IMG/VR virus record: IMGVR_UViG_3300031134_000466
DNA length: 64,000 nt
DNA from: a virus
Taxonomy: Duplodnaviria > Heunggongvirae > Uroviricota > Caudoviricetes
Strand: one strand, 5' to 3'
In this document: one piece after another, positions 26,372-31,465 of the stretch
Layout of the letters: the number at the start of each line of letters is the position of its first letter
Numbering within the stretch: position 1 is the first letter of the stretch
The notes under the pieces: model-generated
What the model saw: only the letters and a program-made list of their open reading frames with translations
The model's database searches: none
What the model was told of the DNA's origin: nothing
Position numbers and translations under genes: made by a program

Positions 26372-27676
26372 ATGGGAAAAATCATTGAAGAGACAATGCT
26401 TGTCATGGTTGACACAAAGAACAACAACAACAAGTTCTACCATGTCACATTGGATGATGCTAACGTCGTCACCAAGCGCTGGGGACGTGTAGGAGCTGAA
26501 GGAGCGAGTTCCGTCGAGACAACAGGCAAGATTGGTTACGAGCGAGCCATCAAGTCCAAAGAGAAAAAGGGCTACAAGGTCTCACCTATTGTTAGCACAG
26601 GTGTCACAGTCAAGAGTTCTGTCAACCACCTTGACGAAGTAGCTAAGAAGTTTCTGTCCAAGGACAGCGGAGACAGCCTTATCAGCAACCTCATTGACCG
26701 ACTCATCGCATCAAACCAGCACCAGATTATGGAGCAGTCCGGTGGTATGATTAAGATTACCGACGACGGAACCGTAAAGACCGCTCTCGGTGTTGTTGAC
26801 CTTTGCTCCATCAACTCTGCCCGAGACCTCATTGGTGAGATGCAGAAGAAGAAAACAGGGCAGACCAAGCTCCTGGAAGATTACCTCACCCTCATTCCTC
26901 AGAACATTGGGTACCGTCGTGGTTGGGAAGAGGACTTCCTGAAGACGGAAAACTTTGCCAAGCAGATGGACTTCTTGAAGCAGCTTGAGGATTCTGTGCA
27001 GTGGCGAAACACCACCGCACAGGTCACCACAGATGACGAAGACAAGTTCGACATCGATGCTCACAAAGACCTGTTCCGCATGAACCTTGCGAAGATTTCC
27101 GACAGCGGAAAAGACTTCGACCGTATCAACAAGATGTTTAAAGAAACACGCAACAACATGCACACATCACGTAACCTCAAACTTGTGAACGTGTATGCAG
27201 TGGAAGATGTCAAGGGCAAGGAAGCTTACGAAGCTGCTCAGAAGAAGTATGGAAACGTACGTGAACTCTGGCACGGAACAAAAGCCTCCAATGTTCTCTC
27301 CATTCTCACAAAGGGATTGTTCGTGCCTAACGCAGGTAGCGGTATCCCTGTGACAGGAAGAATGTTCGGTGATGGTGTCTACTTCAGTGACCAGAGCACC
27401 AAAAGCTTGAACTACGCCAACGGTTACTGGGATGGTTCACGCACCAGCCAGAACTGTTTCATGCTTCTGAACGATGTTGTCATGGGTCATGAGTACCGCC
27501 CTCAGCGTTGGGACTACAGCTCTCTCCGTCAGGCACACAAGGGCGTTGGAACTTCAGGTAAGCCTTACCAGTCCATCAGCGTTCGTGGTGGAACCTGTAA
27601 CGTTCGAAACAACGAAATGATTATTTGGAACACTGACCAGGTGGCTGTACGTTACCTCTGCGAATTTGGTAGCTAA
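26372..27676 (+). CDS. WGR-domain poly(ADP-ribose) polymerase-like protein
   Basis: 434 aa. WGR 'KRWGRVGAEG', helical regulatory region, catalytic H-Y-E 'LWHGT', 'GVYFSD', 'NNEMIIWN'. Confidence 0.85.
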   Translation: MGKIIEETMLVMVDTKNNNNKFYHVTLDDANVVTKRWGRVGAEGASSVETTGKIGYERAIKSKEKKGYKVSPIVSTGVTVKSSVNHLDEVAKKFLSKDSGDSLISNLIDRLIASNQHQIMEQSGGMIKITDDGTVKTALGVVDLCSINSARDLIGEMQKKKTGQTKLLEDYLTLIPQNIGYRRGWEEDFLKTENFAKQMDFLKQLEDSVQWRNTTAQVTTDDEDKFDIDAHKDLFRMNLAKISDSGKDFDRINKMFKETRNNMHTSRNLKLVNVYAVEDVKGKEAYEAAQKKYGNVRELWHGTKASNVLSILTKGLFVPNAGSGIPVTGRMFGDGVYFSDQSTKSLNYANGYWDGSRTSQNCFMLLNDVVMGHEYRPQRWDYSSLRQAHKGVGTSGKPYQSISVRGGTCNVRNNEMIIWNTDQVAVRYLCEFGS

Positions 27677-27745
27677 TTGACAGCTTTTAGCCTATCTGCT
27701 GAAAATCACCAGAAAAGAAATATCGTATCAGTGATGCTGGTAAAG

Positions 27746-28399
27746 CTAATTGTGTTTTTTTGCAGGTACAGGTCTACTCATTGAATTTGCACTTCCTAAT
27801 ATGAATATTAACGCTGTGCTGGCTAAATTCAATATATTACTAAACGTTAAAACTAAATTTAGCCTTGATTGTTTTGTTTCACGGATTTCAGGATTGTAAA
27901 CATATTCTGGTACTTCTGCCAAGCATTTTTCTTTAGGAGTTAGGTTGTTGTACCAGGCAGCTGTTTGGGGCATGGAACCGGCACTATTTGAAACATTCGC
28001 ACATCGTTCGGCGGGAGTCATATTCTCTATTCGGGCGTCATTCAAAGAAGTTCCAATTACAATACTTTGCAGAAGGAAAGATATAACACTCAAAGTCAAG
28101 ATAAGACCAGGTAATTTTGATAAAGATTTTGTGTCATTGCCTCTTCTAAACCATAGGCTAATTGTAGGGGCTAAAATAGCTATAGTGAATATCAACGTGA
28201 GTACGTAAAATTGTTTCGTACTTATAAACTCAGCATATCGCATAAGTAACAAAACGATATTTACAGAAACATAAAATAACATCCAATACCAAAATTCACT
28301 TTTACTGGCTGTTCCTTGGGGCTTGAAACTACGTTCAAATCCATGGCGTATTGCTCTGAAAAAATTAACAGATTCTGCAACAGGGGGTATATAAGTCAT
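27746..28399 (-). CDS. DUF805-like inner-membrane protein
   Basis: 217 aa. 'FKPQGTASKSEFWYWMLF' plus TM segments. AT-rich gene. Confidence 0.6.
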   Translation of the reverse strand: MTYIPPVAESVNFFRAIRHGFERSFKPQGTASKSEFWYWMLFYVSVNIVLLLMRYAEFISTKQFYVLTLIFTIAILAPTISLWFRRGNDTKSLSKLPGLILTLSVISFLLQSIVIGTSLNDARIENMTPAERCANVSNSAGSMPQTAAWYNNLTPKEKCLAEVPEYVYNPEIRETKQSRLNLVLTFSNILNLASTALIFILGSANSMSRPVPAKKHN

Positions 28400-28538
28400 A
28401 CATCTATATTCGGTTCAAAAGAACAAAATAACACTTAGATAACAGGCTATTGATCGGATGTAGAGAGGATGACATGTTTCTATAGTGCGTGTATCTCAGA
28501 TAATCTAAGGTTGTAATTCGCCTTGTTAGACATAAACT

Positions 28539-30043: not shown

Positions 30044-30049
30044 GTAATT

Positions 30050-30460
30050 ATGACTAACGAAAACCTGACCATGCATGATGTCGAAGTTGATGACCAAGTA
30101 GAAATTATTTTCACTAACGGTGACCGAATCACAGGGACTGTGACTTCTCCTAACATCAGCTCCACAATGCGTATCCAGACCATTTTTGCTGGGGACACAT
30201 ACATCTCTTTGCACAACGTAGACAGCTACACGGTAAAGAAGGTCCACGACAAGCAGGAACCTTTCGAACCTGAAGGTGAAGGAGAAATCTGGGGTTACAT
30301 CCAGTACCAGGTTCGAGGTTTCGCTGCAATCAACAAGAAGCAGGTCCACCGTGACGCTAAGGGGCTATGGCACATGGATGGCAAGTCAGGAACCTGGGCG
30401 AGACTTCAGTTCAACATTGGTCAGGACTTCACATTTGTTCAGTTGGTGGAAGCTAACTGA
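30050..30460 (+). CDS. hypothetical protein
   Basis: 136-aa ORF immediately upstream of ART 2. Confidence 0.55.
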   Translation: MTNENLTMHDVEVDDQVEIIFTNGDRITGTVTSPNISSTMRIQTIFAGDTYISLHNVDSYTVKKVHDKQEPFEPEGEGEIWGYIQYQVRGFAAINKKQVHRDAKGLWHMDGKSGTWARLQFNIGQDFTFVQLVEAN

Positions 30461-30499
30461 GGTTGGTAGCATATGCTTACATCTTGTTAGAGATTAGGT

Positions 30500-31465
30500 A
30501 TGTGCTACCCCAAACCTGGTCCTCGCTGTTCAGCTCATGCTGCAGTTAAACTGGCGACTGTAAAACTCGCTTCTACCAGCGGTAGTCAAGATTTTGCCGA
30601 GTACTTAGCTCATCAGGAGCGTCTTGAAGAAGCTCAGCTGGAGTATGACATCACGCCAGCAGGTTTGAAAGATTTACAGGATTTAGTGGGTCAACGAAAT
30701 GACCCTGACGCTGAGCTCCGTTATTCCAAAGCTAAAGCCCTGAGAGCAAAGAAGTTGGCTTTGTTGCATGAAGACCAGAAACAAGAGCAAGGTCATACTC
30801 TTGCAAGGGTTCAAGGGGTAAATGAAGATTTTTGTTCTGATGAAATTGTTCGTTCTAACAAAGATGCTGGAATCACATCCGCAGCTTTAGTAGCTGAAGC
30901 TGAACCGTGGTTTAATCAGTTGAACGATGATGAACTTTCTCAAATGCACTGGATGACCGACTATGGTTCAATGGAAGCTAATACGCACATCGCAGGAACC
31001 AATGACCATAAACGTTTTGGTGGTCTATTCTCTGCAGAGAACTTGGAATCTCGTATGGTTCAAGTTGACTCGGCTTTGAGTAAGTTTGAGTCACATCATG
31101 ATGAAGTTGTCTACAGGGGCTTTCGTGAAGGCTCTCTTCCCTCTGCTATGGCAAACAACTACCGGGTATCAGATGATGTGAAGCAAGCTGCAGTTCTGAA
31201 ATCTTTCACCGTAGGTGAAGTCTACAAGTCTGATTTCTACATGCCAACTTCTGTACAGCCTGAAGAGGCTGCTCGTTTTGCTGATTTCGGTTGCGTCATG
31301 GAAATCAAAACCCGCAAAGCTGCTCCTGTATCTGCCATTTCTGAAGTTCCCCGTGAGTCAGAAAAACTGATTGGTCGTAACAGTGAATTCAAAGTCGTGG
31401 CAATCAAAGAGAACATCATGTACGGCATTAAGAGAATGACTGTTGTTCAGTTAGAGCAACTCTAA
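30500..31465 (+). CDS. R-S-ExE ADP-ribosyltransferase 2 with N-terminal C-x7-C-x2-H module
   Basis: 321 aa. 'MCYPKPGPRCSAHAA', 'VVYRGF', 'YMPTSV', 'RESEKLIGR'. Confidence 0.7.
   Translation: MCYPKPGPRCSAHAAVKLATVKLASTSGSQDFAEYLAHQERLEEAQLEYDITPAGLKDLQDLVGQRNDPDAELRYSKAKALRAKKLALLHEDQKQEQGHTLARVQGVNEDFCSDEIVRSNKDAGITSAALVAEAEPWFNQLNDDELSQMHWMTDYGSMEANTHIAGTNDHKRFGGLFSAENLESRMVQVDSALSKFESHHDEVVYRGFREGSLPSAMANNYRVSDDVKQAAVLKSFTVGEVYKSDFYMPTSVQPEEAARFADFGCVMEIKTRKAAPVSAISEVPRESEKLIGRNSEFKVVAIKENIMYGIKRMTVVQLEQL

Follow-up and report, generated by a model that had tools for sequence, protein, structure and literature searches.

The DNA examined here, called the window below, is a stretch of 64,000 nucleotides (nt) from the IMG/VR virus record IMGVR_UViG_3300031134_000466 (Caudoviricetes). 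It encodes four ADP-ribosyltransferases of the kinds that consume nicotinamide adenine dinucleotide (NAD+): one poly(ADP-ribose) polymerase (PARP) plus three ExE-type mono-ADP-ribosyltransferases (ARTs), which we refer to as ART1, ART2, and ART3. All four open reading frames (ORFs) lie exactly where an earlier, sequence-only reading had placed them. The three ARTs all begin with an N-terminal Cys-x(n)-Cys-x2-His knuckle and are preceded by one and the same short DNA motif; the PARP has neither the knuckle nor the motif. The genes and the elements next to their start codons are as follows, with lengths in amino acids (aa).

26338..26365, plus strand: promoter-like element of the PARP (TTGCAA, 16 nt, TGcTATAAT), with the -10 element ending 6 nt before the ATG
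26372..27676, plus strand: PARP, 434 aa, with WGR, probable helical (HD), and catalytic (CAT) domains and the triad H301/Y337/E415
28524..28530, plus strand: TGTTAGA motif, 8 nt before the ART1 ATG
28539..29579, plus strand: ART1, 346 aa, of the R-S-ExE type, with R163, S212-T-T214, E266-R-E268, and the knuckle C7-x7-C15-x2-H18
30485..30491, plus strand: TGTTAGA motif, 8 nt before the ART2 ATG
30500..31465, plus strand: ART2, 321 aa, with an N-terminal module (aa 1-100), an ART domain (aa 135-313), R206, P249-T-S251, and E286-S-E288
51758..52729, minus strand: ART3, 323 aa, with an N-terminal module (aa 1-103), an ART domain (aa 138-303), R209, S245-T-S247, and E283-Y-E285
52738..52744, minus strand: TGTTAGA motif, 8 nt before the ART3 ATG

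Domains and active sites of the PARP and the ARTs

The PARP matches Pfam WGR family PF05406 at aa 8-69 (nt 26393-26578; E = 1e-10; 42 bits, against a 22-bit cutoff) and the PARP catalytic family PF00644 at aa 247-432 (E = 2e-29; 102.7 bits, against a 26.7-bit cutoff), and it also matches phrog_23333 (E = 4.5e-65). In a phmmer search of PDB, aa 4-405 aligned to the WGR-HD-CAT portion of human PARP1 (E = 1e-20), with LWHGT falling on the PARP1 LWHGS sequence (His862) and GVYFSD falling on GIYFAD (Tyr896). The same method aligned approximately aa 136-240 to the helical regulatory domain of PARP1; PF02877 is called on some homologs but not on the protein from the window. The WGR motif itself is W37-G38-R39, and G38, R39, W300-H301-G302, Y337, and E415 are invariant across 37 homologs (42-76% identity). 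Because these residues are invariant and the domains align, the H-Y-E triad is intact, as the sequence-only reading had claimed, and the architecture appears to be so too. Homologs that combine the WGR and PARP domains number 665; some of these are on contigs of 0.34-0.88 Mb, and others are proteins from Rathayibacter and Agromyces.

Enzymes of this type have precedents. Jumbo phages such as XacN1 are known to encode PARPs (PMC7824862), and bacterial WGR-(reg)-cat PARPs have been catalogued, including actinobacterial ones, with two of them showing DNA-dependent PARylation in vitro (PMC8120803, PMC5966428). The PARP from the window shares the WGR and catalytic domains, probably the helical region between them, and the H-Y-E triad with the WGR-PARPs of Herpetosiphon aurantiacus, C. 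difficile CD160, XacN1, and Xoo-sp13. By tblastn, its identity is approximately 40% to the PARPs annotated in the Xanthomonas phages XacN1 and Xoo-sp13, and it is 42% identical to actinobacterial ones. Unlike the known WGR-PARPs, it is encoded in a much larger genome, behind a predicted leaderless promoter, and with no PARG found nearby.

Since its -10 element ends 6 nt before the ATG, the PARP mRNA is predicted to be leaderless. The same TGnTAnAAT-N6-ATG arrangement precedes the PARP orthologs in two related loci, L013 and L014. Moreover, TGnTA at positions -15 to -11 of an ATG occurs in 10 cases, versus 1-2 at most spacings and 5-6 at two adjacent ones. The leaderless start proposed in the sequence-only reading thus gains support at the level of sequence. 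We propose that the PARP is probably made early, from a canonical extended -10 element that should be readable by unaided host RNA polymerase. Most likely, its WGR domain would then bind breaks or ends in nucleic acids and thereby relieve the inhibition exerted by the helical domain, and the relieved PARP would ADP-ribosylate itself and nearby proteins. With a host-type, predicted leaderless promoter and an apparently full autoinhibited architecture, this protein is a compact candidate through which to approach what a PARP contributes when a bacterium is infected. Just upstream of the PARP promoter, at 26182..26298 on the plus strand, is an unannotated ORF of 38 codons for a single-pass membrane peptide, MDEYSAFEKRNKVIRVVAIVTVIAVAGSGIAAAFFGAF.

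For the ARTs, the relevant Pfam family is PF03496 (ADPrib_exo_Tox), whose gathering threshold is 23.4 bits. ART3 scores 74.6 bits (E = 9e-21) and ART2 scores 57.1 bits (E = 2e-15) against this family. ART2 and ART3 are full-length paralogs with 28% identity, and they align to the toxin VIP2 such that R206 and R209, respectively, fall on the catalytic arginine and E286-S-E288 and E283-Y-E285 fall on E426-x-E428; S245-T-S247 of ART3 falls on the VIP2 STS motif. An AlphaFold model of ART3 (42 homologs) reached a predicted local distance difference test (pLDDT) score of 92.7 and a predicted template modeling (pTM) score of 0.91. In a Foldseek comparison to PDB, the best matches of this model, over its C-terminal ~200 residues, were VIP2, Plx2A, Certhrax, Tre1, C3, CDTa, iota Ia, and ExoS (probability, 1.00; E = 1e-11 to 1e-8).

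ART1 has no match among PDB sequences even at E = 10 and none in GenBank phages by tblastn. PF03496 is found in most of its 109 homologs, and an alignment of 37 of these shows no variation at Y162-R163-G164, S212-T213, or E266-R267-E268. Across the ART family alignments, the catalytic arginine and the ExE motif are invariant. Alignments confirm the R and ExE residues in all three ARTs, with two corrections to the motifs YRG / S-T-(S/T) / ExE that the sequence-only reading had assigned to each: the ExE assignment stands, but ART3 has YRR in place of YRG, and ART2 has P-T-S in place of S-T-S.

Because the ExE motif is a hallmark of arginine-specific ARTs (PMC8120803), an arginine acceptor is predicted for all three enzymes. 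Most likely, they are arginine-specific mono-ARTs whose action on host proteins would redirect or disarm the cell, by analogy to Alt, ModA, and ModB of phage T4. The comparison to T4, which had been drawn from the sequence alone, is a reasonable one for three ExE enzymes: in both cases, a phage encodes several ExE-type ARTs with a presumed function in host takeover, and there are weak matches to Alt-like PHROG families. For phrog_802 (Alt-like), these reach E = 1.3e-8 for ART3, over aa 28-214 only, and E = 5e-3 for ART1; the match for ART2 is to phrog_3895, annotated as "exoenzyme toxin." Nevertheless, sequence similarity to the T4 enzymes is marginal and, in the case of ART3, is found mainly beyond the catalytic core; the ARTs of the window also differ in their N-terminal module, and their catalytic domains are nearer to C3, VIP2, and iota toxin. 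They share the fold, as modeled for ART3, and the R and ExE residues of the active site with C3, VIP2, iota Ia, CDTa, Certhrax, and Tre1 (PF03496), and ART1 and ART3 also have the STS-type motif (STT and STS). Unlike these toxins, they are phage encoded and intracellular, with no signal peptide, binding component, or secretion domain; their N-terminal knuckle and helical module are new, and ART2 has PTS for STS.

The N-terminal module and the TGTTAGAYAT motif

The first 15 residues of ART2 and ART3 are identical (MCYPKPGPRCSAHAA) and open a module of approximately 100 residues (MCYPKPGPRC...TPAG). Among 42 members of the ART2/ART3 family, M1, C2, Y3, P6, G7, P8, R9, C10, S11, A14, T55, P56, R86, and H101 are invariant, as are the catalytic R and the ExE motif. 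In the structural model, the module is predicted with confidence to be a four-helix unit that follows a Cys-x7-Cys-x2-His knuckle. The copies differ at synonymous sites, and therefore selection on the module acts at the protein level. The ART1 family has a related knuckle, TKC-x7-C-RLHNP, in which C7 and C15 are invariant. In the ART1 family (P0096-P0150), approximately half of the homologs have an MCRGGKDG-x3-RC N terminus in place of TKC-x7-C-RLH, indicating that the knuckle is exchangeable within one orthologous group.

A profile of the module was searched against 1.84 billion cluster representatives (clusters at 50% identity), and at E ≤ 1e-3 it matched at least 953 proteins, of which 334 reached E ≤ 1e-10. 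The match starts at residue 1 in 150 of the 150 matches listed, in proteins of 107-792 aa. ADPrib_exo_Tox is the partner domain in 52 of 132 module members examined, and other partners include RNase_T, YqaJ, Rnl1, HD, LPD29, DUF7226, and RNase_H_2. All 132 members have M-C-Y-x-x-P-G-P-R-C in invariant or nearly invariant form, with C2 and C10 being invariant and H13 being frequent.

No Pfam family covers the N-terminal region in any module member, and searches with the module returned nothing from GenBank phages (tblastn), nothing from BFVD, and only generic helical bundles from PDB structures. A DNA pattern for MCYPKPGPRC has a single match, in Demequina, among 185k reference genomes and 0 matches in IMG/VR; the motif "KPGPRC" has no mention in the searchable literature. 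The N-terminal tag family and the promoter-like motif coupled to it are previously undescribed, and the module defines a large domain family that has not yet been catalogued.

Further enzymes in the window carry the module or a related N terminus.

23434..24246, plus strand: NT5C 5'-nucleotidase, the third copy of the module in the window (MCKRKPYPRCSYHA...FTSLAG), with TGTTAGGA displaced by 3 nt
14395..16506, minus strand: YqaJ + RNase_T exonuclease, with the N-terminal Cys pair RCPAQKKC and GGTTAGAG-N7-ATG upstream, of the same promoter class
54122..55363, plus strand: Rnl1-like RNA ligase, with the N-terminal Cys pair NCWTKDC and TGTTAGT-N8-ATG upstream

The NT5C form of the module, MC-x-x-KP-x-PRC-S-x-HA...(T/S)-x-AG, is also found in the L013 and L014 orthologs. 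The ORF of the YqaJ/RNase_T exonuclease extends to 16512, and its true start is probably the ATG at 16506. This exonuclease and the ligase at 54122..55363 are preceded by one-mismatch versions of TGTTAGA-N8-ATG, and in other phages both enzyme types bear the canonical MCYPKPGPRC module.

Two relatives outside the window deserve mention in their own right. At 17668..18426 (minus strand) of the related locus L006, a protein with a Tox-PLDMTX domain (phospholipase-D-type toxin) starts with a knuckle, YKCQAVIPSSCRFHG, and has ATGTTAGATATGAAAT-ATG upstream. In Demequina sediminis (L015; NZ_AP027736), a protein encoded at 2941..4071 (minus strand) starts with MCYPKPGPRC, has repeated GRCxxC...H units, and is encoded beside a tyrosine recombinase, probably within an integrated element of this actinobacterium.

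Exact TGTTAGA-N8-ATG occurs three times in the window, each time at an ART start, and TGTTAGAYAT is kept before ART orthologs in six related loci (approximately 50% protein identity), where the remaining intergenic DNA has diverged. Across the window as a whole, TGTTAGR is not enriched (21 observed, versus 18.7 expected), and so the motif is informative only position specifically, next to an ATG. The association of motif and knuckle was tested in the window and eight related loci (224 kb) with ORFs of at least 80 aa, using GTTAG[AG]-N7-9-ATG upstream and C-x4-9-C-x2-H within the first 32 residues. A knuckle was present in 17 of the 20 motif-preceded ORFs, versus 9 of 336 others (Fisher p = 7e-20), and most of these nine have near-variants of the motif upstream. 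The tagged set comprises ARTs, NT5C, YqaJ/RNase T exonucleases, the Tox-PLDMTX protein, and several unknowns. Because tag and motif mark these other enzymes too, the ARTs probably belong to a coregulated, commonly tagged enzyme set that is apart from the PARP.

How the motif might act can be judged from its geometry. With TG at -15/-14 and TA at -12/-11, TGTTAGA is placed exactly as in the PARP TGnTATAAT; it has no conserved -35 element, and its hexamer, TAGAYA, ends in A. We propose that TGTTAGAYAT may be a non-canonical -10-like element through which the ARTs would be expressed together with the separately regulated tagged set. Alternatively, it could be an operator in RNA that is bound near the AUG by a translational repressor, as with T4 RegA. 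The fixed distance of 8 nt to the ATG and the absence of the canonical T at -7 would suit such an operator; however, the geometry is identical to that of the canonical TGnTAnnnT-N6-ATG arrangement of the PARP and other genes in the window, and the ART genes lack a Shine-Dalgarno sequence, in keeping with leaderless starts. We regard the RNA operator as unlikely.

Our tentative proposal, which we hold to be possible rather than probable, is that a clade of actinobacterial phages of 0.6-1.0 Mb has an undescribed system for tagging enzymes and that the ARTs are its most abundant cargo, with the knuckle and a leaderless, promoter-like TGTTAGAYAT-N-ATG marking its regulon. ARTs, a nucleotidase, exonucleases, an RNA ligase, a PLD toxin, and HD proteins may be coexpressed and routed to one destination. 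The most attractive shared destination may be the capsid, from which the enzymes would be injected as a first-wave arsenal; alternatively, it may be a common docking partner engaged via zinc.

Delivery in the virion would make the knuckle a virion-targeting tag and TGTTAGAYAT a late promoter for a phage-modified polymerase, so that the ARTs would be injected like T4 Alt and the PARP would be made early. Several observations are consistent with this possibility, which nevertheless strikes us as doubtful. The tag stands at residue 1 in every listed match, on unrelated enzymes that include a polyvalent-protein domain (LPD29), and it is tightly associated with the promoter-like motif, which has no -35 element and no T at -7, unlike the PARP promoter. 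In addition, among GenBank phages, the catalytic domain of ART3 has its nearest relatives in MuF-ART fusions of mycobacterial prophages (26-28% identity). These fusions, such as McProf gp54, resemble ART3 in the catalytic domain and probably in belonging to actinobacterial phages; they differ in that the N-terminal partner in ART3 is the MCYPKPGPRC module and not MuF (minor capsid). It has also been argued that phage ARTs are often delivered at infection (Iyer et al., PMC9503650). On the other hand, it is not obvious that an NT5C nucleotidase or an RNA ligase would serve as an injected effector, and the module has no structural likeness to known targeting domains. The model, moreover, predicts that the module packs tightly on the ART3 catalytic domain (pTM, 0.91), which would equally fit an integral regulatory or substrate-binding domain.

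Comparable to packaging as an alternative, and likewise rather doubtful, is zinc-dependent docking, in which the knuckle module would bind nucleic acids or a hub protein and thereby anchor its enzymes at the ends of DNA or RNA, at the replisome, or at RNA polymerase. Many partners act on nucleic acids (RNase_T, YqaJ, Rnl1, HD, RNase_H_2, and NT5C), and, of the potential ligands, C2 and C10 do not vary, H13 is present in many members, and H101 is invariant within the ART subfamily. Nevertheless, protein-modifying ARTs are the most common partners (52 of 132). Whichever destination applies to the proposed tagging system, the shared tag and promoter-like motif provide a testable handle on how huge phages organize, time, and possibly deliver enzymes for host manipulation.

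Gene neighborhood and NAD+ synthesis

The sequence-only reading had described the PARP, ART1, and ART2 as an NAD+-consuming island, with the third R-S-ExE enzyme further along and with small flanking ORFs as candidate regulators or immunity factors. The features that bear on this idea are listed below.

27746..28399, minus strand: DUF805 membrane protein (Pfam), strain variable, between the PARP and ART1 and convergent with the PARP
29609..29662, both directions: intrinsic terminator, a perfect 24-bp GC-rich hairpin with A/T runs, between ART1 and orf29657
29657..29884, minus strand: orf29657, 75 aa, beside ART1 orthologs in three genomes
30050..30460, plus strand: orf30050, 136 aa, with its own TGGTAACCT-N6-ATG element and not specific to ART2
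31548..32480, plus strand: SPFH/Band_7 membrane protein, a syntenic neighbor
50801..51706, plus strand: polynucleotide kinase-phosphatase (PNKP), convergent with ART3, with its start probably at ATG 50801 and not at TTG 50774
52812..53015, plus strand: orf52812, 67 aa, very basic, divergent from ART3, with 60% identity in L004

Joint action of the PARP, ART1, and ART2, perhaps with ART3, in a functional island has evidence on its side. The PARP and an ART1 ortholog lie 1-4 kb apart in L013 and L014, where the PARP is 67-69% identical; orf29657 keeps its place beside ART1 orthologs; and NAD synthesis genes are encoded in the window. Most findings, however, run the other way. Separate promoter-like elements, of two classes, stand directly before the ATGs of the PARP, ART1, and ART2, and ART1 is followed by a strong terminator (-48.1 kcal/mol; z = -12.3), beyond which the plus strand carries orf30050, ART2, and the SPFH gene. 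The DUF805 gene is absent in L002 and L003, which have an identical PARP, leaving a PARP-ART1 spacer of 100 nt. In L013 and L014 (the latter an 880-kb contig), the genes between the PARP and the ART1 ortholog differ, and the whole region from YqaJ/MazG to the SPFH gene, a deaminase, and an RNA ligase is syntenic, so that proximity is explained by general synteny from MazG through RNA ligase. L014 has no ART2 between its orf30050 ortholog and the SPFH gene, and in L010-L012, ART1 orthologs of 48-53% identity have no PARP within 10 kb. We consider the functional island quite unlikely. Judged from sequence, the clustering is synteny in an accessory-gene region of separate, predicted leaderless units, with no conserved operon.

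The proposed role of the small ORFs fares little better. All three are real, conserved genes, and they have no Pfam match (E ≤ 0.01) and no PADLOC family match; PADLOC also returned no match for the PARP, ART1-3, the DUF805 protein, or the SPFH protein. In L014, the orf30050 ortholog persists immediately upstream of the SPFH gene without an intervening ART, and the orf52812 ortholog in L004 is not adjacent to the ART3 ortholog but approximately 1.8 kb from it. Only orf29657 tracks an ART, with 77% identity in L014 and 44% in L013, and it has no similarity to an 89-aa gene product encoded at the corresponding place beside the ART1 ortholog in L010. Hence, a conserved adjacent immunity or antitoxin gene is not seen for ART2 or ART3, and ART1 keeps orf29657 in three genomes. 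Given these conservation patterns and the absence of family matches, the regulator or immunity idea is unsupported, save as a possibility for orf29657.

A separate candidate function, that ART3 acts with PNKP and an RNA ligase in RNA repair, was rejected: PNKP and the Rnl1-like ligase are kept as neighbors of ART3 in L004 but not in L006, and ART3 is not of the KptA/Tpt1 type. The two Rnl1-like ligases (39328..40449, minus strand, and 54122..55363, plus strand), together with the T4-type PNKP at 50801..51706 (plus strand), make up a full tRNA/RNA break-repair kit.

Genes related to NAD+ supply lie toward the end of the window.

56409..57374, plus strand: NadE-like NAD synthase, a divergent second copy
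58101..59624, plus strand: cytidylyltransferase-like protein that weakly matches NadD/NMNAT (37.9 bits; the cutoff is 112 bits)
62265..63158, plus strand: NadE, NH3-dependent NAD+ synthase (NCBIfam equivalog; 346.9 bits, against a 250-bit cutoff)

Of the dedicated NAD synthesis genes claimed in the sequence-only reading, NadE is thus present twice, but the NadD-like match is weak; NadV, NadM, and NadR were not detected in the window. The NadE and NadD-like proteins plausibly sustain the supply of NAD+.

That reading had also seen an unusually heavy investment in ADP-ribosylation. More than 40% of jumbo phages encode ARTs, with at least 10 in phage G, and a few have PARP-like enzymes, for which the XacN1 protein is cited (Iyer et al. 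2022, PMC9503650). Likewise, "NAD-jumbo phages" have clusters for NAD+ synthesis, including nadD and nadE, alongside enzymes that depend on NAD, PARP among them (Li et al. 2024, PMC11662467). L008, a relative of the genome studied here, has three ARTs within 12 kb. Because published jumbo phages and L008 carry several ARTs, the claim of unusual investment does not stand. The window resembles the NAD-jumbo phages in that nadD/nadE-type genes co-occur with a PARP and ARTs in a very large genome; unlike them, it is from a different clade, for which megablast gave no match among GenBank phages, and NadE is its sole confident assignment in NAD+ synthesis. That jumbo phages can combine a PARP, several ARTs, and genes for NAD+ synthesis is already established, and the window mainly adds divergent members from a poorly sampled clade.

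Genome, relatives, and host

The gene content of the window is typical for a very large phage. It includes a SNF2 helicase, a ribonucleotide reductase (RNR) small subunit, the YqaJ + RNase T exonuclease, MazG, two deaminases, PNKP, two Rnl1-like RNA ligases, Hsp70, a DnaB-like protein, RNase H, NucS, a dNMP-kinase/C5-methylase ORF with an intein, two NadE proteins, the weak NadD-like protein, and many ORFans; no tRNA genes were found in the window. A megablast search with positions 26000-32000 had no match in GenBank phages, and a PARP-based search for related loci in IMG/VR confirmed no relatives. Proteins that are identical or 97% identical to the PARP and ART1 are encoded on metagenomic contigs of up to 776 kb. 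Close relatives lie on contigs of 0.78-0.88 Mb, and more distant orthologs lie on contigs of 0.58-1.0 Mb with similar content. JGI contigs of 776-880 kb encode P0052 and P0293 at 97-100% identity.

Together, these data make it probable that the window comes from a phage-like genome of very large size with four independent NAD+-dependent ADP-ribosyltransferases of two known kinds. It has to be weighed against this that ART1 scores 19.9 bits against PF03496, under the 23.4-bit cutoff; that the first serine of the STS motif in ART2 is replaced by proline (P249-T-S251), a feature of its clade, which has P-[T/A]-S, and one that relatives of 47% identity also show; and that no PARG, macrodomain, or ARH reversal enzyme is found among all ORFs of at least 90 aa in the window. 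With the first STS serine missing, the activity of ART2 could be reduced or altered. In the upstream motif, TAGAYA does not have T at -7, a position that is highly conserved in sigma-70-type -10 elements, and action at the RNA level could be an alternative to promoter function. The window also has no virion or terminase genes, so that the designation "phage" rests on gene content and relatives. Finally, a GC content of 45% would be low for most Actinomycetota and counts against an actinobacterial context.

One further alternative deserves consideration. The ARTs might serve as toxins in modules for toxin-antitoxin function, abortive infection, or superinfection exclusion, or else the region might be bacterial chromosome; Tre1-like toxins are among the structural neighbors, and small bacterial genomes fall into the same size range as the contigs of 0.8-1.0 Mb. 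We judge this highly improbable, as PADLOC has no match for the ARTs, the PARP, or the flanking proteins, ART2 and ART3 have no conserved adjacent antitoxin, and what is encoded in the window and in 12 related loci is phage-like (RNR, PNKP, Rnl1, MazG, TK, T7 gp5.9-like proteins, and many ORFans), with no cellular housekeeping genes.

The host is probably an actinobacterium, as suggested by several indirect signals. NucS is encoded at 49520..50176 (plus strand), predicted leaderless gene starts are widespread, and named PARP homologs come from Rathayibacter and Agromyces. Moreover, the sole reference-genome copy of the ART N-terminal module is that of Demequina sediminis, beside an integrase, and the best GenBank phage matches are to Mycobacterium, Propionibacterium, and Gordonia phages. 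A protein encoded at 41294..42706 (plus strand) has a weak LPXTG-anchor match, which, with NucS, hints at a Gram-positive, actinobacterial host.

The orthologs P0052, P0298, P0026, P0033, and P0133 are encoded on phage-like contigs of 776, 880, 908, 981, and 1,001 kb. The largest known phage genome is 735 kb, according to a 2026 review (PMC13282480). If the contigs with orthologs are complete phages, the clade would surpass this record.

Several other genes were observed in passing. A full-length Hsp70/DnaK is encoded at 42826..44685 on the plus strand (E = 5e-232). The 905-aa ORF at 18430..21147 (plus strand) has a dNMP-kinase-like N terminus, a Hint/intein segment, and a C-5 cytosine DNA methylase, and it looks like an intein-interrupted or fused gene for nucleotide modification. 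The P-loop ATPase encoded at 60331..61548 (plus strand) weakly matches the PADLOC model mad8 and STAND/AAA families, and it may be a defense-like or anti-defense NTPase within the phage. Finally, the related huge-phage locus L011 has a Cas12f1-like TnpB gene at 18856..20163 (plus strand).

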